A DNA stretch of 64,000 nt from NCBI GenBank assembly GCA_963920595.1, contig OY986947.1:6448001-6512000 (forward strand). Direction: 5' to 3'. Under the pieces are notes generated by a model. It had not been told where the DNA came from and did not search any database. It saw only the letters and a program-made list of their open reading frames with translations. Every line of letters begins with the position of its first letter. The first letter of the stretch is position 1. Position numbers and translations under genes: made by a program. This document shows positions 1 to 64,000 of the stretch, in pieces. This stretch comes from Eimeria praecox (Eukaryota).

Positions 1-145
1 GATATCGATACCGTAGGGCCCGAGTGCTAGTTTCATTGTTGAGGGTTCCGGTTTGCACCTGTGTGGGTTTTGTGGCAGGTGGATTGTGTGGAGGGGTAGC
101 TGCTGCAGAGAGCATATATGGATGTTCCATGCTGCCGCGGAACAG

Positions 146-148
146 AAA
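146..148 (+). CDS. Putative microexon 1 of unit 1 (AAA, Lys)
   Basis: ggaacag|AAA|gtatgg; the donor is gtatgc in some later units. Confidence 0.55.
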
Positions 149-3100
149 GTATGGAGAGGGTTGTTGGCTTGCGATGGAACGGAGCGGTGTGTGTGACTGG
201 GTGGCAAGAATCAGTATTTTGTTTAGGCAGGGGGTGGTCAAATGAAGTGACTTAATTGTGGATGAGAGGGCGGGGGGGGTGAGGGGGAGGATTGGGACGT
301 TGGTGGCGCATTTGGCAGCATTGGCTTGTTTCTTTAGTGTGGGGTATGGAGGTGTGAGCAAGGCGTGGGAGAAGGGGAGCATGGTGGTTCAATGCACCAG
401 GAAGTATGTTTGGTTTTTCGTCTTCGTAGGAATTGGTAGGTGGGGTGGTCAGGTATTTGAGTAGCGGGGCTTGAAGGAGGCGTGTTGCGGAGCACAATGT
501 GTGTGTCTAATCAAGGGCTGCACCTGGTACCACCGAAAAAATGTTAGCTGGTGTTTTGTCGCTGAATTGTGTTATATGATTGAGGCCCAGGAGAGGGTTT
601 ATTTGTGTGGCTTATGGAGGGGAGAGCTCGTACACTGTAGTCGTGAATGCGTTTAACATACCAGGAGGTACGGTCGACCTGCATTTGGCAAAAGAAGGAG
701 TCGGGCGTTGACGCGGTGTAGACATTAGTGCATTTTACAGTTGGTTTGCAGGATTGCTGAAGTGTGGTTTGTGTGTGAGTGCAGTGAGCGTCAGGGATGA
801 TGCGTGTGAGATGGAGGGTACATGTCGTGCAATGTAGTCGTGAATGGGCTTCACTTATCAGGAAGTGCGTAGGAGGTGGCGTGGCGAATGGTTGGAGGGC
901 CTTGGTGGGCATTATAGGGTAGTGGTGTTTCCATTTAGGTTGCAAGGGCGGTGAAGGGTAGTTTGAATGGCAAAGGCGCCAGAGTGGCAATATTTTGAGG
1001 ATGCGTTTTGGGGTGGGATCTGCATAGCGTCGGGATTGGATACCAGGACATTTGATGAGTGCTTGTGCTGCATGGGGTAGCGTTGGTGGGTCTGCGGCGG
1101 CGCTTTAGCGTAGGTGACCTGAGTAGGAAGCGCCTGACAGTAGCCTCCAGCGTGTTTGCGTGTGTGTGTGTGGAGTATTCACTATTCACCAGGAGGTACG
1201 GTTTATATTGGGGTATAGCCCAAGCACGTGTTTATAAGGGATAGTGGGCAGTTTGGGTTTTTGGGTGCGCATGGAGTGGGCTGTGGCGCCACCCTAGGGC
1301 TGTCCGCTTCGCAAGATGAGATTCCATTGTGTTGGGGATAAGCGTGCAGTTGGAGTGCGATGCAGGTTGCATTGTTGCAGCCCGAGAGGGAGGCGTGAGT
1401 TGCAATTGAACAGGCTTGTGTGCATCAGAAAGTGCGTTTGTCCCTTAGATTGGGGAGGATGCGTGGTGTGCTTATCGGCATTTGGGATGCTGGGCGTTTC
1501 GCAGGGATTAGTTTGTCAGGGACTTTGTTGGGGTTGAGCGCTGTGAACAAGTAAAGCGACGGCGAGGGCTTGGTTGCTGGTTAGCTTCGTGGGCATTTGT
1601 GTGAGCCATTGGATTGGGGTGGTTTGTTGCCTATGGACCTGTTTCAGAGAGTAAGGATTCTTGGGTGGGTGGAGTGTGGCAGGTGGACGAGAATGTTCCT
1701 TGCGTTGTGTGCAAGGCGGGTCTGGATCTATGGTAGGGTAAGCATGGCCTGTTGAGGATGTTGACGGACGGCGTCTAGGAGGTGTTGGGCGCATGCGTTT
1801 CTATACAGCTGGCATGCAGCACACTTTTGGCTGGTTCCGGATGTAATGTTATGCATTAGGGGAGGGATGCGGAGCACTCGAGAAGCAGTGTTCGTTTGTT
1901 CACTCGAGCTCGTGTTGAATCATGATGGGCATGCAGGGTAGCTCGCCACCATGTCAATGCGTCAGAAAGTAGGCGTCGTGGCCAGCTTGCGCCCATATGC
2001 ACTGCTGTATAAGTCAGCAGATATGGTCGAAACTTGTTTCGTGTTTTCGGGAATGAGTATGAATGCGTTATAAGGTGGAAAAGGAGGTGAAGCGTCAGGA
2101 GCAAGATATCGATACCGTAGGGCCCGAGTGCTAGTTTCATTGTTGAGGGTTCCGGTTTGCACCTGTGTGGGTTTTGTGGCAGGTGGATTGTGTGGAGGGG
2201 TAGCTGCTGCAGAGAGCATATATGGATGTTCCATGCTGCCGCGGAACAGAAAGTATGGAGAGGGTTGTTGGCTTGCGATGGAACGGAGCGGTGTGTGTGA
2301 CTGGGTGGCAAGAATCAGTATTTTGTTTAGGCAGGGGGTGGTCAAATGAAGTGACTTAATTGTGGATGAGAGGGCGGGGGGGGTGAGGGGGAGGATTGGG
2401 ACGTTGGTGGCGCATTTGGCAGCATTGGCTTGTTTCTTTAGTGTGGGGTATGGAGGTGTGAGCAAGGCGTGGGAGAAGGGGAGCATGGTGGTTCAATGCA
2501 CCAGGAAGTATGTTTGGTTTTTCGTCTTCGTAGGAATTGGTAGGTGGGGTGGTCAGGTATTTGAGTAGCGGGGCTTGAAGGAGGCGTGTTGCGGAGCACA
2601 ATGTGTGTGTCTAATCAAGGGCTGCACCTGGTACCACCGAAAAAATGTTAGCTGGTGTTTTGTCGCTGAATTGTGTTATATGATTGAGGCCCAGGAGAGG
2701 GTTTATTTGTGTGGCTTATGGAGGGGAGAGCTCGTACACTGTAGTCGTGAATGCGTTTAACATACCAGGAGGTACGGTCGACCTGCATTTGGCAAAAGAA
2801 GGAGTCGGGCGTTGACGCGGTGTAGACATTAGTGCATTTTACAGTTGGTTTGCAGGATTGCTGAAGTGTGGTTTGTGTGTGAGTGCAGTGAGCGTCAGGG
2901 ATGATGCGTGTGAGATGGAGGGTACATGTCGTGCAATGTAGTCGTGAATGGGCTTCACTTATCAGGAAGTGCGTAGGAGGTGGCGTGGCGAATGGTTGGA
3001 GGGCCTTGGTGGGCATTATAGGGTAGTGGTGTTTCCATTTAGGTTGCAAGGGCGGTGAAGGGTAGTTTGAATGGCAAAGGCGCCAGAGTGGCAATATTTT

Positions 3101-6100
3101 GAGGATGCGTTTTGGGGTGGGATCTGCATAGCGTCGGGAGTGGATTCCAGGACATTTGATGAGTGCTTGTGCTGCATGGGGTAGCGTTGGTGGGTCTGCG
3201 GCGGCGCTTTAGCGTAGGTGACCTGAGTAGGAAGCGCCTGACAGTAGCCTCCAGCGTGTTTGCGTGTGTGTGTGTGGAGTATTCACTATTCACCAGGAGG
3301 TACGGTTTATATTGGGGTATAGCCCAAGCACGTGTTTATAAGGGATAGTGGGCAGTTTGGGTTTTTGGGTGCGCATGGAGTGGGCTGTGGCGCCACCCTA
3401 GGGCTGTCCGCTTCGCAAGATGAGATTCCATTGTGTTGGGGATAAGCGTGCAGTTGGAGTGCGATGCAGGTTGCATTGTTGCAGCCCGAGAGGGAGGCGT
3501 GAGTTGCAATTGAACAGGCTTGTGTGCATCAGAAAGTGCGTTTGTCCCTTGGATTGGGGAGGATGCGTGGTGTGCTTATCGGCATTTGGGATGTTGGCGT
3601 TTCGCAGGGATTAGTTTGTCAGGGACTGTGTTGGGGTTGAGCGCTGTGAACAAGTAAAGCGACGGCGAGGGCTTGGTTGCTGCTTAGCTTCGTGGGCATT
3701 TGTGTGAGCCATTGGATTGGGGTGGTTTGTTGCCTATGGACCTGTTTCAGAGAGTAAGGATTCTTGGGTGGGTGGAGTGTGGCAGGTGGACGAGAATGTT
3801 CCTTGCGTTGTGTGCAAGGCGGGTCTGGATCTATGGTAGGGTAAGCATGGCCTGTTGAGGATGTTGACGGACGGCGTCTAGGAGGTGTAGGGCGCATGCG
3901 TTTCTATACAGCTGGCATGCAGCACACGTTTGGCTGGTTCCGGATGTAATGTTATGCATTAGGGGAGGGATGCGGAGCACTCGAGAAGCAGTGTTCGTTT
4001 GTTCACTCGAGCTCGTGTTGAATCATGATGGGCATGCAGGGTAGCTCGCCACCATGTCAATGCGTCAGAAAGTAGGCGTCGTGGCCAGCTTGCGCCCATA
4101 TGCACTGCTGTATAAGTCAGCAGATATGGTCGAAACTTGTTTCGTGTTTTCGGGAATGAGTATGAATGCGTTATAAGGTGGAAAAGGAGGTGAAGCGTCA
4201 GGAGCAAGATATCGATACCGTAGGGCCCGAGTGCTAGTTTCATTGTTGAGGGTTCCGGTTTGCACCTGTGTGGGTTTTGTGGCAGGTGGATTGTGTGGAG
4301 GGGTAGCTGCTGCAGAGAGCATATATGGATGTTCCATGCCGCCGCGGAACAGAAAGTATGGAGAGGGTTGTGGGCATGCGATGGAACGGAGCGGTGTGTG
4401 TGACTGGGTGGCAAGAATCAGTATTTTGTTTATGCAGGGGGTGGTCAAATGAAGTGACTTAATTGTGGATGAGAGGGCGGGCGGGGTGGGGGGGAGGATT
4501 GGGACGTTGGTGGCGCATTTGGCAGCATTGGCTTGTTTCTTTAGTGTGGGGTATGGAGGTGTGAGCAAGGCGTGGGAGAAGGGGAGCATGGTGGTTCAAT
4601 GCACCAGGAAGTATGTTTGGTTTTTCGTCTTCGTAGGAATTGGTAGGTGGGGTGGTCAGGTATTTGAGTAGCGGGGCTTGAAGGAGGCGTGTTGCGGAGC
4701 ACAATGTGTGTGTCTAATCAAGGGCTGCACCTGGTACCACCGAAAAAATGTTAGCTAGTGTTTTGTCGCTGAATTGTGTTATATGATTGAGGCCCAGGAG
4801 AGGGTTTATTTGTGTGGCTTATGGAGGGGAGAGCTCGTACACTGTAGTCGTGAATGCGTTTAACATACCAGGAGGTACGGTCGACCTGCATTTGGCAAAA
4901 GAAGGAGTCGGGCGTTGACGCGGTGTAGACATTAGTGCATTTTACAGTTGGTTTGCAGGATTGCTGAAGTGTGGTTTGTGTGTGAGTGCAGTGAGCGTCA
5001 GGGATGATGCGTGTGAGATGGAGGGTACATGTCGTGCAATGTAGTCGTGAATGGGCTTCACTTATCAGGAAGTGCGTAGGAGGTGGCGTGGCGAATGGTT
5101 GGAGGGCCTTGGTGGGCATTATAGGGTAGTGGTGTTTCCATTTAGGTTGCAAGGGCGGTGAAGGGTAGTTTGAATGGCAAAGGCGCCAGAGTGGCAATAT
5201 TTTGAGGATGCGTTTTGGGGTGGGATCTGCATAGCGTCGGGAGTGGATTCCAGGACATTTGATGAGTGCTTGTGCTGCATGGGGTAGCGTTGGTGGGTCT
5301 GCGGCGGCGCTTTAGCGTAGGTGACCTGAGTAGGAAGCGCCTGACAGTAGCCTCCAGCGTGTTTGCGTGTGTGTGTGTGGAGTATTCACTATTCACCAGG
5401 AGGTACGGTTTATATTGGGGTGTAGCCCAAGCACGTGTTTATAAGGGATAGTGGGCAGTTTGGGTTTTTGGGTGCGCATGGAGTGGGCTGTGGCGCCACC
5501 CTAGGGCTGTCCGCTTCGCAAGATGAGATTCCATTGTGTTGGGGATAAGCGTGCAGTTGGAGTGCGATGCAGGTTGCATTGTTGCAGCCCGAGAGGGAGG
5601 CGTGAGTTGCAATTGAACAGGCTTGTGTGCATCAGAAAGTGCGTTTGTCCCTTGGATTGGGGAGGATGCGTGGTGTGCTTATCGGCATTTGGGATGTTGG
5701 CGTTTCGCAGGGATTAGTTTGTCAGGGACTGTGTTGGGGTTGAGCGCTGTGAACAAGTAAAGCGACGGCGAGGGCTTGGTTGCTGGTTAGCTTCGTGGGC
5801 ATTTGTGTGAGCCATTGGATTGGGGTGGTTTGTTGCCTATGGACCTGTTTCAGAAAGTAAGGATTCTTGGGTGGGTGGAGTGTGGCAGGTGGACGAGAAT
5901 GTTCCTTGCGTTGTGTGCAAGGCAGGTCTGGATCTATGGTAGGGTAAGCATGGCCTGTTGAGGATGTTGACGGACGGCGACTAGGAGGTGTTGGGCGCAT
6001 GCGTTTCTATACAGCTGGCATGCAGCACACTTTTGGCTGGTTCCGGATGTAATGTTATGCATTAGGGGAGGGATGCGGAGCACTCGAGAAGCAGTGTTCG

Positions 6101-9100
6101 TTTGTTCACTCGCGCTCGTGTTGAATCATGATGGGCATGCAGGGTAGCTCGCCACCATGTCAATGCGTCAGAAAGTAGGCGTCGTGGCCAGCTTGCGCCC
6201 ATATGCACTGCTGTGTAAGCCAGCAGATATGGTCGAAACTTGTTTGGTGTTTTCGGGAATGAGTATGAATGCGTTATAAGGTGGAAAAGGAGGTGAAGCG
6301 TCAGGAGCAAGATATCGATACCGTAGGGCCCGAGTGGTAGTTTCATTGTTGAGGGTTCCGGTTTGCACCTGTGTGGGTTTTGTGGCAGGTGGATTGTGTG
6401 GAGGGGTAGCTGCTGCAGAGAGCATATATGGATGTTCCATGCCGCCGCGGAACAGAAAGTATGGAGAGGGTTGTGGGCATGCGATGGAACGGAGCGGTGT
6501 GTGTGACTGGGTGGCGAGAATCAGTATTTTGTTTATGCAGGGGGTGGTCAAATGAAGTGACTTAATTGTGGATGAGAGGGCGGGCGGGGTGGGGGGGAGG
6601 ATTGGGACGTTGGTGGCGCATTTGGCAGCATTGGCTTGTTTCTTTAGTGTGGGGTATGGAGGTGTGAGGAAGGCGTGGGAGAAGGGGAGCATGGTGGTTC
6701 AATGCACCAGGAAGTATGTTTGGTTTTTCGTCTTCGTAGGAATTGGTAGGTGGGGTGGTCAGGTATTTGAGTAGCGGGGCTTGAAGGAGGCGTGTTGCGG
6801 AGCACAATGTGTGTGTCTAATCAAGGGCTGCACCTGGTACCACCGAAAAAATGTTAGCTAGTGTTTTGTCGCTGAATTGTGTTATATGATTGAGGCCCAG
6901 GAGAGGGTTTATTTGTGTGGCTTATGGAGGGGAGAGCTCGTACACTGTAGTCGTGAATGCGTTTAACATACCAGGAGGTACGGTCGACCTGCATTTGGCA
7001 AAAGAAGGAGTCGGGCGTTGACGCGGTGTAGACATTAGTGCATTTTACAGTTGGTTTGCAGGATTGCTGAAGTGTGGTTTGTGTGTGAGTGCAGTGAGCG
7101 TCAGGGATGATGCGTGTGAGATGGAGGGTACATGTCGTGCAATGTAGTCGTGAATGGGCTTCACTTATCAGGAAGTGCGTAGGAGGTGGCGTGGCGAATG
7201 GTTGGAGGGCCTTGGTGGGCATTATAGGGTAGTGGTGTTTCCATTTAGGTTGCAAGGGCGGTGAAGGGTAGTTTGAATGGCAAAGGCGCCAGAGTGGCAA
7301 TATTTTGAGGATGCGTTTTGGGGTGGGATCTGCATAGCGTCGGGATTGGATACCAGGACATTTGATGAGTGCTTGTGCTGCATGGGGTAGCGTTGGTGGG
7401 TCTGCGGCGGCGCTTTAGCGTAGGTGACCTGAGTAGGAAGCGCCTGACAGTAGCCTCCAGCGTGTTTGCGTGTGTGTGTGTGGAGTATTCACTATTCACC
7501 AGGAGGTACGGTTTATATTGGGGTATAGCCCAAGCACGTGTTTATAAGGGATAGTGGGCAGTTTGGGTTTTTGGGTGCGCATGGAGTGGGCTGTGGCGCC
7601 ACCCTAGGGCTGTCCGCTTCGCAAGATGAGATTCCATTGTGTTGGGGATAAGCGTGCAGTTGGAGTGCGATGCAGGTTGCATTGTTGCAGCCCGAGAGGG
7701 AGGCGTGAGTTGCAATTGAACAGGCTTGTGTGCATCAGAAAGTGCGTTTGTCCCTTAGATTGGGGAGGATGCGTGGTGTGCTTATCGGCATTTGGGATGC
7801 TGGGCGTTTCGCAGGGATTAGTTTGTCAGGGACTTTGTTGGGGTTGAGCGCTGTGAACAAGTAAAGCGACGGCGAGGGCTTGGTTGCTGGTTAGCTTCGT
7901 GGGCATTTGTGTGAGCCATTGGATTGGGGTGGTTTGTTGCCTATGGACCTGTTTCAGAGAGTAAGGATTCTTGGGTGGGTGGAGTGTGGCAGGTGGACGA
8001 GAATGTTCCTTGCGTTGTGTGCAAGGCGGGTCTGGATCTATGGTAGGGTAAGCATGGCCTGTTGAGGATGTTGACGGACGGCGTCTAGGAGGTGTTGGGC
8101 GCATGCGTTTCTATACAGCTGGCATGCAGCACACTTTTGGCTGGTTCCGGATGTAATGTTATGCATTAGGGGAGGGATGCGGAGCACTCGAGAAGCAGTG
8201 TTCGTTTGTTCACTCTAGCTCGTGTTGAATCATGATGGGCATGCAGGGTAGCTCGCCACCATGTCAATGCGTCAGAAAGTAGGCGTCGTGGCCAGCTTGC
8301 GCCCATATGCACTGCTGTGTAAGCCAGCAGATATGGTCCAAACTTGTTTCGTGTTTTCGGGAATGAGTATGAATGCGTTATAAGGTGGAAAAGGAGGTGA
8401 AGCGTCAGGAGCAAGATATCGATACCGTAGGGCCCGAGTGGTAGTTTCATTGTTGAGGGTTCCGGTTTGCACCTGTGTGGGTTTTGTGGCAGGTGGATTG
8501 TGTGGAGGGGTAGCTGCTGCAGAGAGCATATATGGATGTTCCATGCCGCCGCGGAACAGAAAGTATGGAGAGGGTTGTTGGCTTGCGATGGAACGGAGCG
8601 GTGTGTGTGACTGGGTGGCAAGAATCAGTATTTTGTTTAGGCAGGGGGTGGTCAAATGAAGTGACTTAATTGTGGATGAGAGGGCGGGGGGGGGTGGGGG
8701 GGAGGATTGGGACGTTGGTGGCGCATTTGGCAGCATTGGCTTGTTTCTTTAGTGTGGGGTATGGAGGTGTGAGGAAGGCGTGGGAGAAGGGGAGCATGGT
8801 GGTTCAATGCACCAGGAAGTATGTTTGGTTTTTCGTCTTCGTAGGAATTGGTAGGTGGGGTGGTCAGGTATTTGAGTAGCGGGGCTTGAAGGAGGCGTGT
8901 TGCGGAGCACAATGTGTGTGTCTAATCAAGGGCTGCACCTGGTACCACCGAAAAAATGTTAGCTAGTGTTTTGTCGCTGAATTGTGTTATATGATTGAGG
9001 CCCAGGAGAGGGTTTATTTGTGTGGCTTATGGAGGGGAGAGCTCGTACACTGTAGTCGTGAATGCGTTTAACATACCAGGAGGTACGGTCGACCTGCATT

Positions 9101-12100
9101 TGGCAAAAGAAGGAGTCGGGCGTTGACGCGGTGTAGACATTAGTGCATTTTACAGTTGGTTTGCAGGATTGCTGAAGTGTGGTTTGTGTGTGAGTGCAGT
9201 GAGCGTCAGGGATGATGCGTGTGAGATGGAGGGTACATGTCGTGCAATGTAGTCGTGAATGGGCTTCACTTATCAGGAAGTGCGTAGGAGGTGGCGTGGC
9301 GAATGGTTGGAGGGCCTTGGTGGGCATTATAGGGTAGTGGTGTTTCCATTTAGGTTGCAAGGGCGGTGAAGGGTAGTTTGAATGGCAAAGGCGCCAGAGT
9401 GGCAATATTTTGAGGATGCGTTTTGGGGTGGGATCTGCATAGCGTCGGGATTGGATACCAGGACATTTGATGAGTGCTTGTGCTGCATGGGGTAGCGTTG
9501 GTGGGTCTGCGGCGGCGCTTTAGCGTAGGTGACCTGAGTAGGAAGCGCCTGACAGTAGCCTCCAGCGTGTTTGCGTGTGTGTGTGTGGAGTATTCACTAT
9601 TCACCAGGAGGTACGGTTTATATTGGGGTATAGCCCAAGCACGTGTTTATAAGGGATAGTGGGCAGTTTGGGTTTTTGGGTGCGCATGGAGTGGGCTGTG
9701 GCGCCACCCTAGGGCTGTCCGCTTCGCAAGATGAGATTCCATTGTGTTGGGGATAAGCGTGCAGTTGGAGTGCGATGCAGGTTGCATTGTTGCAGCCCGA
9801 GAGGGAGGCGTGAGTTGCAATTGAACAGGCTTGTGTGCATCAGAAAGTGCGTTTGTCCCTTAGATTGGGGAGGATGCGTGGTGTGCTTATCGGCATTTGG
9901 GATGCTGGGCGTTTCGCAGGGATTAGTTTGTCAGGGACTTTGTTGGGGTTGAGCGCTGTGAACAAGTAAAGCGACGGCGAGGGCTTGGTTGCTGGTTAGC
10001 TTCGTGGGCATTTGTGTGAGCCATTGGATTGGGGTGGTTTGTTGCCTATGGACCTGTTTCAGAGAGTAAGGATTCTTGGGTGGGTGGAGTGTGGCAGGTG
10101 GACGAGAATGTTCCTTGCGTTGTGTGCAAGGCGGGTCTGGATCTATGGTAGGGTAAGCATGGCCTGTTGAGGATGTTGACGGACGGCGTCTAGGAGGTGT
10201 TGGGCGCATGCGTTTCTATACAGCTGGCATGCAGCACACTTTTGGCTGGTTCCGGATGTAATGTTATGCATTAGGGGAGGGATGCGGAGCACTCGAGAAG
10301 CAGTGTTCGTTTGTTCACTCGCGCTCGTGTTGAATCATGATGGGCATGCAGGGTAGCTCGCCACCATGTCAATGCGTCAGAAAGTAGGCGTCGTGGCCAG
10401 CTTGCGCCCATATGCACTGCTGTGTAAGCCAGCAGATATGGTCCAAACTTGTTTCGTGTTTTCGGGAATGAGTATGAATGCGTTATAAGGTGGAAAAGGA
10501 GGTGAAGCGTCAGGAGCAAGATATCGATACCGTAGGGCCCGAGTGGTAGTTTCATTGTTGAGGGTTCCGGTTTGCACCTGTGTGGGTTTTGTGGCAGGTG
10601 GATTGTGTGGAGGGGTAGCTGCTGCAGAGAGCATATATGGATGTTCCATGCCGCCGCGGAACAGAAAGTATGGAGAGGGTTGTTGGCTTGCGATGGAACG
10701 GAGCGGTGTGTGTGACTGGGTGGCAAGAATCAGTATTTTGTTTAGGCAGGGGGTGGTCAAATGAAGTGACTTAATTGTGGATGAGAGGGCGGGGGGGGGT
10801 GGGGGGGAGGATTGGGACGTTGGTGGCGCATTTGGCAGCATTGGCTTGTTTCTTTAGTGTGGGGTATGGAGGTGTGAGGAAGGCGTGGGAGAAGGGGAGC
10901 ATGGTGGTTCAATGCACCAGGAAGTATGTTTGGTTTTTCGTCTTCGTAGGAATTGGTAGGTGGGGTGGTCAGGTATTTGAGTAGCGGGGCTTGAAGGAGG
11001 CGTGTTGCGGAGCACAATGTGTGTGTCTAATCAAGGGCTGCACCTGGTACCACCGAAAAAGTGTTAGCTGGTGTTTTGTCGCTGAATTGTGTTATATGAT
11101 TGAGGCCCAGGAGAGGGTTTATTTGTGTGGCTTATGGAGGGGAGAGCTCGTACACTGTAGTCGTGAATGCGTTTAACATACCAGGAGGTACGGTCGACCT
11201 GCATTTGGCAAAAGAAGGAGTCGGGCGTTGACGCGGTGTAGACATTAGTGCATTTTACAGTTGGTTTGCAGGATTGCTGAAGTGTGGTTTGTGTGTGAGT
11301 GCAGTGAGCGTCAGGGATGATGCGTGTGAGATGGAGGGTACATGTCGTGCAATGTAGTCGTGAATGGGCTTCACTTATCAGGAAGTGCGTAGGAGGTGGC
11401 GTGGCGAATGGTTGGAGGGCCTTGGTGGGCATTATAGGGTAGTGGTGTTTCCATTTAGGTTGCAAGGGCGGTGAAGGGTAGTTTGAATGGCAAAGGCGCC
11501 AGAGTGGCAATATTTTGAGGATGCGTTTTGGGGTGGGATCTGCATAGCGTCGGGATTGGATTCCAGGACATTTGATGAGTGCTTGTGCTGCATGGGGTAG
11601 CGTTGGTGGGTCTGCGGCGGCGCTTTAGCGTAGGTGACTTGAGTAGGAAGCGCCTGACAGTAGCCTCCAGCGTGTTTGCGTGTGTGTGTGTGGAGTATTC
11701 ACTATTCACCAGGAGGTACGGTTTATATTGGGGTATAGCCCAAGCACGTGTTTATAAGGGATAGTGGGCAGTTTGGGTTTTTGGGTGCGCATGGAGTGGG
11801 CTGTGGCGCCACCCTAGGGCTGTCCGCTTCGCAAGATGAGATTCCATTGTGTTGGGGATAAGCGTGCAGTTGGAGTGCGATGCAGGTTGCATTGTTGCAG
11901 CCCGAGAGGGAGGCGTGAGTTGCAATTGAACAGGCTTGTGTGCATCAGAAAGTGCGTTTGTCCCTTGGATTGGGGAGGATGCGTGGTGTGCTTATCGGCA
12001 TTTGGGATGTTGGCGTTTCGCAGGGATTAGTTTGTCAGGGACTGTGTTGGGGTTGAGCGCTGTGAACAAGTAAAGCGACGGCGAGGGCTTGGCTGCTGGT

Positions 12101-54100: not shown

Positions 54101-57100
54101 CGCAGGGATTAGTTTGTCAGGGACTGTGTTGGGGTTGAGCGCTGTGAACAAGTTAAGCGACGGCGAGGGCTTGGTTGCTGGTTAGCTTCGTGGGCATTTG
54201 CGTGAGCCATTGGGTTGGGGTGGTTTGTTGCCTATGGACCTGTTTCAGAAAGTAAGGATTCTTGGGTGGGTGGAGTGTGGCAGGTGGACGAGAATGTTCC
54301 TTGCGTTGTGTGCAAGGCGGGTCTGGATCTATGGGAGGGTAAGCATGGCCTGTTGAGGATGTTGACGGACGGCGTCTAGGAGGTGTAGGGCGCATGCGTT
54401 TCTATACAGCTGGCATGCAGCACACTTTTGGCTGGTTCCGGATGTAATGTTATGCATTAGGGGAGGGATGCGGAGCACTCGAGAAGCAGTGTTCGTTTGT
54501 TCACTCGAGCTCGTGTTGAATCATGATGGGCATGCAGGGTAGCTCGCCACCATGTCAATGCGTCAGAAAGTAGGCGTCGTGGCCAGCTTGCGCCCATATG
54601 CACTGCTGTATAAGTCAGCAGATATGGTCCAAACTTGTTTCGTGTTTTCGGGAATGAGTATGAATGCGTTATAAGGTGTAAAAGGAGGTGAAGCGTCAGG
54701 AGCAAGATATCGATACCGTAGGGCCCGAGTGGTAGTTTCATTGTTGAGGGTTCCGGTTTGCACCTGTGTGGGTTTTGTGGCAGGTGGATTGTGTGGAGGG
54801 GTAGCTGCTGCAGAGAGCATATATGGATGTTCCATGCCGCCGCGGAACAGAAAGTATGCAGAGGGTTGTGGGCATGCGATGGAACGGAAGGGTGTGTGTG
54901 ATTGGGTGGCAAGAATCAGTATTTTGTTTATGCAGGGGGTGGTCAAATGAAGTGACTTAATTGTGGATGAGAGGGCGGGGGGGTGGGGGGGAGGATTGGG
55001 ACGTTGGTGGTGCAATTGGCAGCATTGGTTTGTTTCTTTAGTGTGGGGTATGGAGGTGTGACCAATGCGTGGGAGAAGGGGAGCATGGTGGTTCAATGCA
55101 CCAGGAAGTATGTTTGGTTTTTCGTCTGCGTGGTTATTGGTAGGTGGGGTGGTCAGGTATTTGAGTAGCGGGGCTTGAAGGAGGCGTGTTGCGGAGCACA
55201 ATGTGTGTGTCTAATCAAGGGCTGCACCTGGTACCACCGAAAAAATGTTAGCTGGTGTTTTGTCGCTGAATTGTGATATATGATTGAGGCCCAGGAGAGG
55301 GTTTATTTGTGTGGCTTATGGAGGGGAGAGCTCGTACACTGTAGTCGTGGATGCGTTTAACATACCAGGAGGTACGGTCGACTTGCATTTGGCAAAAGAA
55401 GGAGTCGGGCGTTGACGCGGTGTAGACATTAGTGCATTTTACAGTTGGTCTGCAGGATTGCTGAAGTGTGGTTTGTGTGTGAGTGCAGTGAGCGTCAGGG
55501 ATGATGCGTGTGAGATGGAGGGTACATGTCGTGCAATGTAGTCGTGAATGGGCTTCACTTATCAGGAAGTGCGTAGCAGGTGGCGTGGTGAATGGTTGGA
55601 GGGCCTTGGTGGGCATTATAGGGTAATGGTGTTTCCAGTTAGGTTGCAAGGGCGGTGAAGGGTGGTTTGAATGGCAAAGGCGCCAGAGTGGTAATATTTT
55701 GAGGATGCGTTTTGGGGTGGGATCTGCATAGCGTCGGGATTGGATTCCAGGACATTTGATGAGTGGTTGTGCTGCATGGGGTAGCGTTGGTGGGTCTGCG
55801 GCGGCGCTTTAGCGTAGGTGACCTGAGTAGGAAGCGCCTGACAGTAGCCTCCAGCGTGTTTGCGTGTGTGTGTGTGGAGTATTCACTATTCACCAGGAGG
55901 TACGGTTTATATTGGGGTATAGCCCAAGCACGTGTTTATAAGGGATAGTGGGCAGTTTGGGTTTTTGGGTGCGCATGGAGTGGGTTGTGGCGTCACCCTA
56001 GGGCTGTCCGCGTCGCAAGATGAGATTCCATTGTGTTGAGGATAAGCGTGCAGTTGGAGTGCGATGCAGGTTGCATTGTTGCAGCCCGAGAGGGAGGCGT
56101 GATTTGCAATTGAACAGGCTTGTGTGCATCAGAAAGTGCGTTTGTCCCTTGGATTGGGGAGGATGCGTGGTGTGCTTATCGGCATTTGGGATGTTGGGCG
56201 TTTCGCAGGGATTAGTTTGTCAGGGACTGTGTTGGGGTTGAGCGCTGTGAACAAGTTAAGCGACGGCGAGGGCTTGGTTGCTGGTTAGCTTCGTGGGCAT
56301 TTGTGTGAGCCATTGGATTGGGGTGGTTTGTGGCCTATGGACCTGTTTCAGAAAGTATGGATTCTTGGGTGGGTGGAGTGTGGCAGGTGGACGAGAATGT
56401 TCCTTGCGTTGTTTGCAAGGCAGGTCTGGATCTATGGTAGGGTAACCATGACCTGTTGAGGATGTTGACGGACGGCGACTAGGAGGTGTTGGGCGCATGC
56501 GTTTCTATACAGCTGGCATGCAGCACACGTTTGGCTGGTTCCGGATGTAATGTTATGCATTAGGGGAGGGATGCGGAGCACTCGAGAAGCAGTGTTCGTT
56601 TGTTCACTCTAGCTCGTGTTGAATCATGATGGGCATGCAGGGTAGCTCGCCACCATGTCAATGCGTCAGAAAGTAGGCGTCGTGGCCAGCTTGCGCCCAT
56701 ATGCACTGCTGTATAAGTCAGCAGATATGGTCGAAACTTGTTTCGTGTTTTCGGGAATGAGTATGAATGCGTTATAAGGTGGAAAAGGAGGTGAAGCGTC
56801 AGGAGCAAGATATCGATACCGTAGGGCCCGAGTGGTAGTTTCATTGTTGAGGGTTCCGGTTTGCACCTGTGTGGGTTTTGTGGCAGGTGGATTGTGTGGA
56901 GGGGTAGCTGCTGCAGAGAGCATATATGGATGTTCCATGCCGCCGCGGAACAGAAAGTATGGAGAGGGTTGTGGGCTTGCGATGGAACGGAGCGGTGTGT
57001 GTGATTGGGTGGCAAGAATCAGTATTTTGTTTATGCAGGGGGTGGTCAAATGAAGTGACTTAATTGTGGATGAGAGGGCGGGGCGGTGGGGGGGAGGATT

Positions 57101-60100
57101 GGGACGTTGGTGGCGCATTTGGCAGCATTGGCTTGTTTCTTTAGTGTGGGGTATGGAGGTGTGAGCAAGGCGTGGGAGAAGGGGAGCATGGTGGTTCAAT
57201 GCACCAGGAAGTATGTTTGGTTTTTCGTCTGCGTGGTTATTGGTAGGTGGGGTGGTCAGGTATTTGAGTAGCGGGGCTTGAAGGAGGCGTGTTGCGGAGC
57301 ACAATGTGTGTGTCTAATCAAGGGCTGCACCTGGTACCACCGAAAAAATGTTAGCTGGTGTTTTGTCGCTGAATTGTGATATATGATTGAGGCCCAGGAG
57401 AGGGTTTATTTGTGTGGCTTATGGAGGGGAGAGCTCGTACACTGTAGTCGTGAATGCGTTTAACATACCAGGAGGTACGGTCGACCTGCATTTGGCAAAA
57501 GAAGGAGTCGGGCGTTGACGCGGTGCAGACATTAGTGCATTTTACAGTTGGTTTGCAGGATTGCTGAAGTGTGGTTTGTGTGTGAGTGCAGTGAGCGTCA
57601 GGGATGATGCGTGTGAGATGGAGGGTACATGTCGTGCAATGTAGTCGTGAATGGGCTTCACTTATCAGGAAGTGCGTAGGAGGTGGCGTGGCGAATGGTT
57701 GGAGGGCCTTGGTGGGCGTTATAGGGTAATGGTGTTTCCAGTTAGGTTGCAAGGGCGGTGAAGGGTGGTTTGAATGGCAAAGGCGCCAGAGTGGTAATAT
57801 TTTGAGGATGCGTTTTGGGGTGGGATCTGCATAGCGTCGGGATTGGATTCCAGGACATTTGATGAGTGGTTGTGCTGCATGGGGTAGCGTTGGTGGGTCT
57901 GCGGCGGCGCTTTAGCGTAGGTGACCTGAGTAGGAAGCGCCTGACAGTAGCCTCCAGCGTGTTTGCGTGTGTGTGTGTGGAGTATTCACTATTCACCAGG
58001 AGGTACGGTTTATATTGGGGTATAGCCCAAGCACGTGTTTATAAGGGATAGTGGGCAGTTTGGGTTTTTGGGTGCGCATGGAGTGGGTTGTGGCGTCACC
58101 CTAGGGCTGTCCGCGTCGCAAGATGAGATTCCATTGTGTTGAGGATAAGCGTGCAGTTGGAGTGCGATGCAGGTTGCATTGTTGCAGCCCGAGAGGGAGG
58201 CGTGATTTGCAATTGAACAGGCTTGTGTGCATCAGAAAGTGCGTTTGTCCCTTGGATTGGGGAGGATGCGTGGTGTGCTTATCGGCATTTGGGATGTTGG
58301 GCGTTTCGCAGGGATTAGTTTGTCAGGGACTGTGTTGGGGTTGAGCGCTGTGAACAAGTTAAGCGACGGCGAGGGCTTGGTTGCTGGTTAGCTTCGTGGG
58401 CATTTGTGTGAGCCATTGGATTGGGGTGGTTTGTGGCCTATGGACCTGTTTCAGAAAGTATGGATTCTTGGGTGGGTGGAGTGTGGCAGGTGGACGAGAA
58501 TGTTCCTTGCGTTGTGTGCAAGGCGGGTCTGGATCTATGGTAGGGTAACCATGACCTGTTGAGGATGTTGACGGACGGCGACTAGGAGGTGTTGGGCGCA
58601 TGCGTTTCTATACAGCTGGCATGCAGCACACGTTTGGCTGGTTCCGGATGTAATGTTATGCATTAGGGGAGGGATGCGGAGCACTCGAGAAGCAGTGTTC
58701 GTTTGTTCACTCTAGCTCGTGTTGAATCATGATGGGCATGCAGGGTAGCTCGCCACCATGTCAATGCGTCAGAAAGTAGGCGTCGTGGCCAGCTTGCGCC
58801 CATATGCACTGCTGTATAAGTCAGCAGATATGGTCCAAACTTGTTTCGTGTTTTCGGGAATGAGTATGAATGCGTTATAAGGTGGAAAAGGAGGTGAAGC
58901 GTCAGGAGCAAGATATCGATACCGTAGGGCCCGAGTGGTAGTTTCATTGTTGAGGGTTCCGGTTTGCACCTGTGTGGGTTTTGTGGCAGGTGGATTGTGT
59001 GGAGGGGTAGCTGCTGCAGAGAGCATATATGGATGTTCCATGCCGCCGCGGAACAGAAAGTATGCAGAGGGTTGTGGGCTTGCGATGGAACGGAGCGGTG
59101 TGTGTGATTGGGTGGCAAGAATCAGTATTTTGTTTATGCAGGGGGTGGTCAAATGAAGTGACTTAATTGTGGATGAGAGGGCGGGGGGGGTGGGGGGGAG
59201 GATTGGGACGTTGGTGGCGCATTTGGCAGCATTGGCTTGTTTCTTTAGTGTGGGGTATGGAGGTGTGAGCAAGGCGTGGGAGAAGGGGAGCATGGTGGTT
59301 CAATGCACCAGGAAGTATGTTTGGTTTTTCGTCTGCGTGGTTATTGGTAGGTGGGGTGGTCAGGTATTTGAGTAGCGGGGCTTGAAGGAGGCGTGTTGCG
59401 GAGCACAATGTGTGTGTCTAATCAAGGGCTGCACCTGGTACCACCGAAAAAATGTTAGCTGGTGTTTTGTCGCTGAATTGTGATATATGATTGAGGCCCA
59501 GGAGAGGGTTTATTTGTGTGGCTTATGGAGGGGAGAGCTCGTACACTGTAGTCGTGGATGCGTTTAACATACCAGGAGGTACGGTCGACCTGCATTTGGC
59601 AAAAGAAGGAGTCGGGCGTTGACGCGGTGCAGACATTAGTGCATTTTACAGTTGGTCTGCAGGATTGCTGAAGTGTGGTTTGTGTGTGAGTGCAGTGAGC
59701 GTCAGGGATGATGCGTGGGATATGGAGGGTACATGTCGTGCAATGTAGTCGTGAATGGGCTTCACTTATCAGGAAGTGCGTAGGAGGTGGCGTGGTGAAT
59801 GGTTGGAGGGCCTTGGTGGGCGTTATAGGGTAGTGGTGTTTCCAGTTAGGTTGCAAGGGCGGTGAAGGGTGGTTTGAATGGCAAAGGCGCCAGAGTGGCA
59901 ATATTTTGAGGATGCGTTGTGGGGTGGGATCTGCATAGCGTCGGGAGTGGATACCAGGACATTTGATGAGTGGTTGTGCTGCATGGGGTAGCGTTGGTGG
60001 GTCTGCGGCGGCGCTTTAGCGTAGGTGACCTGAGTAGGAAGCGCCTGACAGTAGCCTCCAGCGTGTTTGCGTGTGTGTGTGTGTGGAGTATTCACTATTC

Positions 60101-63100
60101 ACCAGGAGGTACGGCTTATACTGGGGTATAGCCCAAGCACGTGTTTATAAGGGATAGTGGGCAGTTTGGGTTTTTGGGTGCGCATGGAGTGGGTTGTGGC
60201 GTCACCCTAGGGCTCTCCGTTTCGCAAGATGAGATTCCATTGTGTTGGGGATAAGCGTGCAGTTGGAGTGCGATGCAGGTTGCATTGTTGCAGCCCGAGA
60301 GGGAGGCGTGAGTTGCAATTGAACAGGCTTGTGTGCATCAGAAAGTGCGTTTGTCCCTTAGATTGGGGAGGATGCGTGGTGTGCTTATCGGCATTTGGGA
60401 TGCTGGGCGTTTCGCAGGGATTAGTTTGTCAGGGACTTTGTTGGGATTGAGCGCTGTGAACAAGTAAAGCGACGGCGAAGGCTTGGTTGCTGGTTAGCTT
60501 CGTGGGCATTTGTGTGAGCCATTGGATTGGGGTGGTTTGTTGCCTATGGACCTGTTTCAGAGAGTAAGGATTCTTGGGTGGGTGGAGTGTGGCAGGTGGA
60601 CGAGAATGTTCCTTGCGTTGTGTGCAAGGCGGGTCTGGATCTATGGTAGGGTAAGCATGGCCTGTTGAAGATGTTGACGGACGGCGTCTAGGAGGTGTTG
60701 GGCGCATGCGTTTCTATACAGCTGGCATGCAGCACACTTTTTGCTGGTTCCGGATGTAATGTTATGCATTAGGGGAGGGATGGAGAGCACTCGAGAACAG
60801 TGTTCGTTTGTTCACTCGAGCTCGTGTTGAATCATGATGGGCATGCAGGGTAGCTCGCCACCATGTCAATGCGTCAGAAAGTAGGCGTCGTGGCCAGCTT
60901 GCGCCCATATGCACTGCTGTATAAGTCAGCAGATATGGTCGAAACTTGTTTCGTGTTTTCGGGAATGAGTATGAATGCGTTATAAGGTGGAAAAGGAGGT
61001 GAAGCGTCAGGAGCAAGATATCGATACCGTAGGGCCCGAGTGGTAGTTTCATTGTTGAGGGTTCCGGTTTGCACCTGTGTGGGTTTTGTGGCAGGTGGAT
61101 TGTGTGGAGGGGTAGCTGCTGCAGAGAGCATATATGGATGTACCATGCCGCCGCGGAACAGAAAGTATGGAGAGGGTTGTGGGCATGCGATGGAACGGAG
61201 GGGTGTGTGTGATTGGGTGGCAAGAATCAGTATTTTGTTTATGCAGGGGGTGGTCAAATGAAGTGACTTAATTGTGGATGAGAGGGCGGGGGGGTGGGGG
61301 GGAGGATTGGGACGTTGGTGGTGCATTTGGCAGCATTGGTTTGTTTCTTTAGTGTGGGGTATGGAGGTGTGACCAGTGCGTGGGAGAAGGGGAGCATGGT
61401 GGTTCAATGCACCAGGAAGTATGTTTGGTTTTTCGTCTGCGTGGTTATTGGTAGGTGGGGTGGTCAGGTATTTGAGTATCGGGGCTTGAAGGAGGCGTGC
61501 TGCGGAGCACAATGTGTGTGTCTAATCAAGGGCTGCACCTGGTACCACCGAAAAAATGTTAGCTGGTGTTTTGTCGCTGAATTGTGATATATGATTGAGG
61601 CCCAGGAGAGGGTTTATTTGTGTGGCTTATGGAGGGGAGAGCTCGTACACTGTAGTCGTGAATGCGTTTAACATACCAGGAGGTACGGTCGACTTGCATT
61701 TGGCAAAAGAAGGAGTCGGGCGTTGACGCGGTGTAGACATTAGTGCATTTTACAGTTGGTCTGCAGGATTGCTGAAGTGTGGTTTGTGTGTGAGTGCAGT
61801 GAGCGTCAGGGATGATGCGTGTGAGATGGAGGGTGCAGGTCGTGCAATGTAGTCGTGAATGGGCTTCACTTATCAGGAAGTGCGTAGCAGGTGGCGTGGC
61901 GAATGGTTGGAGGGCCTTGGTGGGCGTTATAGGGTAGTGGTGTTTCCAGTTAGGTTGCAAGAGCGGTGAAGGGTGGTTTGAATGGCAAAGGCGCCAGAGT
62001 GGCAATACTTTGAGGATGCGTTTTGGGGTGGGATCTGCATAGCGTCGGGATTGGATTCCAGGACATTTGATGAGTGGTTGTGCTGCATGGGGTAGCGTTG
62101 GTGGGTCTGCGGCGGCGCTTTAGCGTAGGTGACCTGAGTAGGAAGCGCCTGACAGTAGCCTCCAGCGTGTTTGCGTGTGTGTGTGTGGAGTATTCACTAT
62201 TCACCAGGAGGTACGGCTTATATTGGGGTATAGCCCAAGCACGTGTTTATAAGGGATAGTGGGCAGTTTGGGTTTTTGGGTGCGCATGGAGTGGGCTGTG
62301 GCGTCACCTTAGGGCTCTCTGTTTCGCAAGATGAGATTCCATTGTGTTGGGGATAAGCGTGCAATTGGAGTGCGATGCAGGTTGCATTGTTGCAGCCCGA
62401 GAGGGAGGCGTGATTTGCAATTGAACAGGCTTGTGTGCATCAGAAAGTGCGTTTGTCCCTTAGATTGGGGAGGATGCGTGGTGTTCGTGGTGTGCGTATC
62501 GGCATTTAGGATGTTGGGCGTTTCGCAGGGATTAGTTTGTCAGGGACTGTGTTGGGGTTGAGCGCTGTGAACAAGTTAAGCGACGGCGAGGGCTTGGTTG
62601 CTGGTTAGCTTCGTGGGCATTTGCGTGAGCCATTGGATTGGGGTGGTTTGTTGCCTATGGACCTGTTTCAGAAAGTAAGGATTCTTGGGTGGGTGGAGTG
62701 TGGCAGGTGGACGAGAATGTTCCTTGCGTTGTTTGCAAGGCAGGTCTGGATCTATGGTAGGGTAACCATGACCTGTTGAGGATGTTGACGGACGGCGACT
62801 AGGAGGTGTTGGGCGCATGCGTTTCTATACAGCTGGCATGCAGCACACGTTTGGCTGGTTCCGGATGTAATGTTATGCATTAGGGGAGGGATGCGGAGCA
62901 CTCGAGAAGCAGTGTTCGTTTGTTCACTCTAGCTCGTGTTGAATCATGATGGGCATGCAGGGTAGCTCGCCACCATGTCAATGCGTCAGAAAGTAGGCGT
63001 CGTGGCCAGCTTGCGCCCATATGCACTGCTGTATAAGTCAGCAGATATGGTCGAAACTTGTTTCGTGTTTTCGGGAATGAGTATGAATGCGTTATAAGGT

Positions 63101-63992
63101 GGAAAAGGAGGTGAAGCGTCAGGAGCAAGATATCGATACCGTAGGGCCCGAGTGGTAGTTTCATTGTTGAGGGTTCCGGTTTGCACCTGTGTGGGTTTTG
63201 TGGCAGGTGGATTGTGTGGAGGGGTAGCTGCTGGAGAGAGCATATATGGATGTTCCATGCCGCCGCGGAACAGAAAGTATGGAGAGGGTTGTGGGCATGC
63301 GATGGAACGGAGCGGTGTGTGTGACTGGGTGGCAAGAATCAGTATTTTGTTTATGCAGGGGGTGGTCAAATGAAGTGACTTAATTGTGGATGAGAGGGCG
63401 GGGGGGGTGGGGGGGAGGATTGGGACGTTGGTGGCGCATTTGGCAGCATTGGCTTGTTTCTTTAGTGTGGGGTATGGAGGTGTGAGCAAGGCGTGGGAGA
63501 AGGGGAGCATGGTGGTTCAATGCACCAGGAAGTATGTTTGGTTTTTCGTCTGCGTGGTTATTGGTAGGTGGGGTGGTCAGGTATTTGAGTATCGGGGCTT
63601 GAAGGAGGCGTGTTGCGGAGCACAATGTGTGTGTCTAATCAAGGGCTGCACCTGGTACCACCGAAAAAATGTTAGCTGGTGTTTTGTCGCTGAATTGTGT
63701 TATATGATTGAGGCCCAGGATAGGGTTTATTTGTGTGGCTTATGGAGGGGAGAGCTCGTACACTGTAGTCGTGAATGCGTTTAACATACCAGGAGGTACG
63801 GTCGACCTGCATTTGGCAAAAGAAGGAGTCGGGCGTTGACGCGGTGTAGACATTAGTGCATTTTACAGTTGGTTTGCAGGATTGCTGAAGTGTGGTTTGT
63901 GTGTGAGTGCAGTGAGCGTCAGGGATGATGCGTGTGAGATGGAGGGTACATGTCGTGCAATGTAGTCGTGAATGGGCTTCACTTATCAGGAA
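146..63992 (+). CDS. Putative internal part of a spliced gene made of 244 3-nt microexons (8 per unit) encoding [EEEEK(K/R)KK]n, a charged single alpha-helix-like repeat; start and stop would lie outside the window
   Basis: Each unit has eight CAG|RRR|GTRNG sites with intron-sized GT...AG gaps of 252, 261, 194, 328, 233, 216, 315 and 281 nt, which with 24 exonic nt sum to 2104. Concatenated triplets give K-E-E-E-E-K-(K/R)-K. The only exonic variant I found is AAA<->AGA. No transcript evidence; phase 0 is assumed. Confidence 0.6.
268..296 (+). other. G-run cluster with G-quadruplex potential, once per unit, length-polymorphic
   Basis: gggcggggggggtgagggggaggattggg has four runs of >=3 G. The poly-G length varies by +/-1 between units and accounts for part of the 2103-2105 period variation. 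Confidence 0.6.
401..403 (+). CDS. Putative microexon 2 of unit 1 (GAA, Glu)
   Basis: tcaatgcaccag|GAA|gtatgt. Confidence 0.6.
665..667 (+). CDS. Putative microexon 3 of unit 1 (GAG, Glu)
   Basis: tttaacataccag|GAG|gtacgg. Confidence 0.6.
862..864 (+). CDS. Putative microexon 4 of unit 1 (GAA, Glu)
   Basis: ttcacttatcag|GAA|gtgcgt. Confidence 0.6.
1161..1172 (+). repeat. Short (TG)6 microsatellite in each unit, ~20 nt upstream of putative microexon 5
   Basis: gcgtgtgtgtgtgtgg; one extra TG in unit 29 (~60071-60085). Confidence 0.8.
1193..1195 (+). CDS. Putative microexon 5 of unit 1 (GAG, Glu)
   Basis: ttcactattcaccag|GAG|gtacgg. Confidence 0.6.
1429..1431 (+). CDS. Putative microexon 6 of unit 1 (AAA, Lys)
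   Basis: gtgtgcatcag|AAA|gtgcgt. Confidence 0.6.
1648..1650 (+). CDS. Putative microexon 7 of unit 1 (AGA, Arg; AAA, Lys in 17 of 30 units)
   Basis: cctgtttcag|AGA|gtaagg; other units have cag|AAA|gtaagg or cag|AAA|gtatgg. Confidence 0.6.
1966..1968 (+). CDS. Putative microexon 8 of unit 1 (AAA, Lys)
   Basis: tcaatgcgtcag|AAA|gtaggc. Confidence 0.6.
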
Positions 63993-64000
63993 GTGCGTAG

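Follow-up and report, generated by a model that had tools for sequence, protein, structure and literature searches.

Can a protein-coding gene be built from exons of one codon each, and can it lie inside what looks like a satellite? These questions are raised by a 64,000-nucleotide (nt) stretch of the Eimeria praecox genome (GCA_963920595.1, contig OY986947.1, positions 6,448,001 to 6,512,000 of the forward strand), called the window here and numbered from its first letter. A unit of 2.1 kilobases (kb), repeated in tandem ~30.4 times, fills the whole 64-kb window, and in each unit eight trinucleotides stand between a CAG and a GT. On the evidence of the sequence, we consider it highly probable that the window is a maintained array of 3-nt exons lying between introns of 194-330 nt, and not a plain satellite. 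A fuller reading, in which these exons are joined in phase 0, mostly included and translated into an E4K4 helix, has our preference, held with considerably less assurance.

The features on which the argument turns, with each candidate exon given at its first copy, are the following.

1..64000, + strand: tandem array of 30 full units of 2102-2115 base pairs (bp) and an 872-bp partial unit; neither array end lies inside the window
146..148, + strand: candidate 3-nt exon K4 (AAA), acceptor AACAG, donor GTATG; 31 copies, the first site in the window
401..403, + strand: candidate 3-nt exon E1 (GAA), donor GTATG; 31 copies
665..667, + strand: candidate 3-nt exon E2 (GAG), donor GTACG (30) or GTATG (1); 31 copies
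862..864, + strand: candidate 3-nt exon E3 (GAA), donor GTGCG; 31 copies, the final one at 63990-63992
1193..1195, + strand: candidate 3-nt exon E4 (GAG), donor GTACG; 30 copies
1429..1431, + strand: candidate 3-nt exon K1 (AAA), donor GTGCG (29) or GTCCG (1); 30 copies
1648..1650, + strand: candidate 3-nt exon K2 (AAA in 17, AGA in 13), donor GTAAG (16) or GTATG (14); 30 copies
1966..1968, + strand: candidate 3-nt exon K3 (AAA), donor GTAGG; 30 copies
149..2249, + strand: eight candidate GT-AG introns of unit 1, of 252, 261, 194, 328, 233, 216, 315 and 281 nt, with G+T-rich bodies

Candidate one-codon exons

The 244 CAG-NNN-GT sites, located with a 12-nt upstream anchor for each of the eight, run from 146 to 63990-63992, eight per unit and in strictly periodic order. 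From 146 onward the triplets come as AAA, GAA, GAG, GAA, GAG, AAA, AAA/AGA and AAA (K4, E1-E4, K1-K3); counted from E1 to K4, there are 31 GAA, 31 GAG, 31 GAA, 30 GAG, 30 AAA, 17 AAA with 13 AGA, 30 AAA and 31 AAA. A preliminary description of this DNA had reported four Glu triplets followed by four Lys/Arg triplets in every unit, and that order was recovered at all 244 sites. CAG upstream and GT downstream are present in 244/244 sites and a GTRNG donor in 243/244, and neither CAG nor GT varies at any of the eight sites across 30/30 aligned units; the variants at donor +4 exchange GTACG with GTATG and GTAAG with GTATG. In size and flanks the sites correspond to spliceosomal microexons (up to ~30 nt, AG/GT boundaries, lineage-typical context).

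Such sites are far more frequent than chance would provide. A unit holds 8 CAG-NNN-GTRNG sites versus a mean of 0.99 in dinucleotide shuffles, none of 2000 of which reaches 8, and the - strand holds 0; when any spacing from 0 to 30 is allowed, 1 of 1000 shuffles reaches 8. If the donor is relaxed to GTR, the excess shrinks (9 versus 2.8; 5/2000 shuffles). A ninth site, GGG at 231 with donor GTGGT, was rejected for its weak donor and for position 226, which varies in 24/30 units. There are also three zero-length sites at which CAG abuts GT (76, 450 and 1680), with donors outside GTRNG.

The 244 sites amount to only eight independent ones, multiplied by unit repetition, and three further features are independent of how the sites were picked. 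The stretch free of AG before the eight site CAGs measures 12-39 nt, against a median of 6 before 31 other CAGs (P 0.001). G content falls from 39% in the intron bodies to 24% in the final 20 nt. Lastly, variation among the 30 units touches 148 of 2104 positions and none of those from -12 to -1 of the acceptors (0/96; with adjustment for base and CpG, 5.96 would be expected, P 0.003), and with CAG excluded 1/120 positions from -18 to -4 is variable, against 7.8 expected (P 0.004); in a rotation test 1 of 2103 rotations matches this invariance. The pattern reads as selection that still acts on the acceptors. Site spacing is even (194-330 nt), and every indel falls between sites, within candidate introns.

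The units differ by 1.7% in mean pairwise comparison, by 1.0% when adjacent and by 2.3% when 25 units apart, and no pair is identical. Among informative site pairs, 1789/2850 fail the four-gamete test; since no two units are identical and these failures abound, we conclude that units recombine, that they are mosaic and that the array is being homogenised. In this it resembles a satellite, but its variation is not indifferent to the splice-like motifs, as that of a satellite would be. A 9-nt insertion in the K1-K2 intron is common to units 26 and 30 (54021-54249 and 62444-62672), four units apart, for which gene conversion or unequal exchange is the reading we offer. Variable CpG positions (25/190, versus 148/2104 overall) run at ~2x the average rate, which hints at methylation.

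The introns are mostly unrelated to one another, the exception being those that precede E1, E2 and E3: the 3' ends before E2 (614-664) and E3 (811-861) share 78% identity over 51 nt, with the E1 intron weakly related, probably the trace of an older duplication of a single module. In five of eight acceptors an A occupies -9 and a pyrimidine comes next (TCAAT, TTAAC, TTCAC, ACTAT, TCAAT), a feature that the other three lack; examples of the 13-nt stretches before sites are 388-400, 652-664, 849-861, 1180-1192 and 1953-1965. This A is a possible branch point, unusually near the AG. Within the K4-E1 intron, 272-292 and its copies form a G-rich run of variable length, a possible G-quadruplex or slippage spot. 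Folding of the introns (25 shuffles each) placed one of the eight at z -2.1 and one at +2.6, with no common structure.

Base composition is strongly skewed between strands (G 37.6%, T 28.2%, A 19.5%, C 14.7%). An open reading frame through the genomic repeat was considered and rejected, as unit length shifts by 1-2 nt and the frame is lost; the longest stop-to-stop frames reach 186 amino acids and lie mainly on the C/A-rich - strand. An Rfam search of 1-4300, the first two units, gave 0 matches to E 1, Tandem Repeats Finder with a period limit of 500 reported no repeat for the 2.1-kb array, and two exact 24-mers from the window each found 0 matches among metagenome contigs.

Reading frame and predicted product

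If the triplets are joined, no stop codon arises in any of the three phases. Phase 0 yields 123 E, 108 K and 13 R, a net charge of -2 over 244 residues in EEEEK(K/R)KK repeats, with opposite charges in 100% of pairs at i+4 and 75% at i+3. Phase 1 gives 169 K, 61 R and 13 E (net +217), and phase 2 gives 92 R, 90 K, 31 G and 30 E (net +152). The profile of a single alpha-helix (SAH), with ~80% E/K/R and opposite charges at i/i+3 and i/i+4, appears in phase 0 only, at 100% E/K/R, and is conditional on both phase and inclusion of the exons.

Two properties of the triplets bear on the frame. With the AGA allele excepted, every one of the eight sites carries A in the middle, and this favours phase 0, because codon position 2 suits it better than the wobble position of phase 2. 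The sole exonic polymorphism, AAA/AGA, would exchange K for E in phase 1; in phase 0 it is a conservative K/R change and in phase 2 it is synonymous, so that it counts only against phase 1. Given real coding exons, phase 0 is the most plausible frame, an inference that we make with good confidence. The preliminary description had itself called the phase unproven, and the stop-free peptides that it gave for phases 1 and 2 were recovered.

An alpha-helix rises 0.15 nm per residue, and a predicted spacer of 244 to perhaps ~415 residues would span 37-62 nm if fully helical. The helix is likely semi-flexible, because the full-rod state does not predominate for (E4K4)3 (bioRxiv 2022.09.28.509894). 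The rigid rod of ~36 nm first proposed is on that account overstated, and the array probably extends beyond the window. One Arg per repeat is reported to stabilise helices of the E4K4 type (PMC5812594).

The proposed gene and its alternatives

We propose that the window probably forms the central part of a single protein-coding gene, every exon in it one codon long, and that the joined product, (EEEEK(K/R)KK)n, would form a salt-bridged SAH spacer. A 3-nt exon cannot hold the exon-definition factors, and for this reason splicing would proceed by intron definition, with the two ends of each 194-330-nt intron recognised together and one intron after another removed, to leave one codon per junction. 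As to history, a module of intron plus codon may have been duplicated locally into an eight-module unit, the introns of the eight modules may then have diverged almost beyond recognition, and the whole unit may have been amplified to ~52 copies and homogenised by unequal crossing-over or gene conversion. Gain or loss of one unit would change the product by one 8-residue charge period (~1.2 nm at 0.15 nm per residue), and any exon skip would keep the frame, so that splicing errors would be tolerated and spacer length would be free to evolve. In its most complete form this is a single gene of ~110 kb with ~415 introns, in which every exon supplies one amino acid of a perfect (E4K4)52 helix ~60 nm long, and recombination between units fixes the helix length in steps of 8 residues. 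On this proposal we are close to evenly divided, leaning slightly against. With the same near balance of opinion, no run of single-codon exons met in the literature searched would be longer than that of such a gene, and no natural SAH more regular than its product.

A number of observations weigh against this account. Regarding the sites themselves, the looser GTR donor is not significant once any spacing is allowed (54/1000 shuffles). The acceptor windows were picked after the variant list was known, and 18/31 decoy CAGs also lack a variable site (0.58^8 ~0.013, a hand calculation); for these two reasons, the protection of acceptors is moderate, not overwhelming, evidence. Donors (1/32 positions variable versus 2.4 expected) and exons (1/24 versus 1.2) show no measurable constraint, each at low power, so that the purifying selection on splice signals expected of microexons is seen at the acceptors, with donors and exons alone too few to inform. 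The K1 site of unit 13 (26671-26679) has a GTCCG donor at 26674 in place of GTGCG, for which we offer the reading of a weak allele or a consensus error.

The order of the triplets is also less telling than it looks. A perfect 4+4 block arises in 48/420 (AAA) or 192/1680 (AGA) distinct triplet orders, or 11%, and in 1.1-1.5% of 40000 permutations of the unit's 24 exon bases; moreover, because the introns of E1-E3 are old paralogues, the blocks may stem from local duplication. The preliminary description had taken the ordered read-out as support beyond the motif count; by itself the 4+4 order is weak evidence. Its microexon reading has good support from independent lines of sequence evidence, and phase 0 remains the likeliest frame. 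The K/R polymorphism, for its part, would be synonymous in phase 2.

Expression poses further difficulties. Every Lys is AAA, and in the joined product 12 A in a row would occur 17 times and A4-G-A7 13 times. A 12A-1 motif is reported to cut output by 40-60% via stalling and frameshifting (PMC7295572), and 30-50 A12-type tracts per mRNA are hard to reconcile with efficient translation. The use of AAA might be forced by avoidance of CAG-AAG tandem acceptors, an explanation weakened by a predicted leakage at such acceptors of just 2-3% in Arabidopsis (PMC2375911). Full inclusion also demands 400+ correct splices across ~110 kb. Partial inclusion and low expression are live alternatives.

Of the competing explanations the one that fares best, itself unlikely, is that the phase-0 exons are real and are included partly and at random, so that the product would be a set of E/K-rich linkers, shorter and unequal in length, in place of one regular helix. 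Skips keep the frame, E2 and E4 form CAG-GAG-GT tandem acceptors and one donor is weak; skipping of Lys exons would relieve the A12 tracts, and alternative splicing is the behaviour reported in Tuber (PMC4986451, PMC13449251). Yet a strict 4+4 period pays only with ordered inclusion of most exons, and the codons are not diversified.

Scarcely behind it, and again improbable, stands the idea that real 3-nt exons are read in another frame, in phase 2 as (RGREKKKR)n or in phase 1 as (KRKRK(K/E)KK)n, and encode a very basic tract that binds nucleic acid or silica. Both phases are stop-free and phase 2 makes AAA/AGA synonymous, but the net charge would be +152 or +217 over 243 residues. Phase 2 would further need a wobble A at 8/8 sites, among them a four-fold Gly site, despite diverged module introns, and phase 1 would turn the polymorphism into a K/E swap in 13/30 copies.

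We give slightly less credence still to a unit that was once a coding microexon gene or a non-coding transcript and now spreads as a satellite, with no protein today. Homogenisation of a satellite kind (1.0% divergence for adjacent units, 2.3% for those 25 apart), one decayed donor and A-tracts that disfavour translation all suit this view, whereas acceptors protected among variants from recent amplification point to current splicing selection. That the array is an ordinary satellite or an assembly artefact, its chance motifs multiplied by unit repetition, we regard as very improbable: there are eight independent sites only and the looser donor loses significance after spacing correction, but 0/2000 shuffles match with GTRNG, and strand asymmetry, AG-free zones, acceptor conservation, the difference of every unit from every other, and two DNA sequencing runs in which the unit is deeply covered and many of the variants recur (possibly from the source sample) all speak against it.

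Array extent and known systems

The two runs, X1 and X2, come from one sample and hold many variants in common with the window; that sample is possibly the window's own source and so not independent, and the contigs are of DNA type. In run X1, 15/20 of the joints shown fall at GANTC, GATC or CTNAG sites, as in a proximity-ligation library, and none corresponds to intron removal. Run X2 supplies a feature outside the window.

Unit position 1038..1074, E3-E4 intron, + strand: candidate 3' edge of the homogenised array; an X2 contig of 7,106 nt and depth 505.5 exits the repeat at 1074 into unlike sequence

With just 37 aligned letters and 32 diverged ones, this exit is likely the 3' edge of the array. 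The depths of the repeat contigs sum to ~26,000 at three places, 51.5-52.2 times that of the edge contig, which suggests an array of ~52 units, ~110 kb and ~415 codons if the edge contig is single-copy, depth not being the same as copy number. In an X1 contig 52 unlike letters run into the unit at position 1336, which may mark a 5' edge of the array or a ligation product.

Should the proposed gene be real, exon size and number would both lie at an extreme, with a coding density of 24/2104 bases (~1%), and the locus would be a natural test of how a spliceosome handles hundreds of adjacent 3-nt exons in order. Some kilobase-scale masked "satellites" in eukaryote assemblies would then be protein-coding exons, unplaceable by short-read RNA mapping and hidden from annotation pipelines. 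The product would be a natural molecular ruler, and the locus a test of whether this lineage's ribosomes can cope with poly(A) tracts by the dozen.

For microexon-encoded SAHs or arrays of single-codon exons, nothing relevant was found in the literature searched, which leaves out most subscription papers, and no 3-nt microexons appear among the matches listed. The nearest comparison for the exons is with the nank genes of Tuber, whose codon-sized mini-exons number in the tens and are alternatively spliced (PMC4986451, PMC13449251). Both show runs of one-codon exons, and the 244 candidates here, subject to splicing, exceed the tens of consecutive exons that mark those genes. In Tuber, alternative splicing serves receptor diversity in a NACHT-ankyrin NLR host, whereas a structural, periodic product is predicted here. 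The present array also differs in having at least 244 sites (~415 estimated), nearly invariant codons drawn from four triplets only, and an eight-module super-repeat of mostly unrelated introns. Schistosoma micro-exon genes likewise draw their coding region from many very short exons, mostly of 3n length; in them 10-20 exons, for the most part 15 bp long (the range is 3 or 6 to 81), alternate with introns of 0.1-5 kb, and the encoded proteins are secreted and variable (PMC10526429). Here all exons are 3 nt, number at least 244 and are separated by introns of 194-330 nt, and the Schistosoma genes, unlike the window, are not a homogenised tandem array.

For the product, the comparison is with ER/K helices, (E4K4)n peptides and yeast Mnn4, with which the phase-0 product would share the E4K4 octad and complete i/i+4 complementarity. 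E4K4 was at first described as the canonical SAH pattern, which is apt in that it is the designed consensus (bioRxiv 2022.09.28.509894) and less so for natural SAHs, in which repeated octads are described as extremely rare (PMC5812594); Mnn4 is a natural case, a (K4E4)n tract of roughly 9 octads in the quoted stretch (PMC10602382). A quoted range for SAH length is 25-200 residues. The product predicted here would have 30-52 perfect octads drawn from one-codon exons, in contrast to ER/K helices and Mnn4, each encoded by one contiguous exon. By analogy, the array would act like the codon-sized exon arrays of Tuber and its product like an ER/K helix. Set against the codon-sized exon arrays already known, this one is extreme in its scale and would differ in its purpose.

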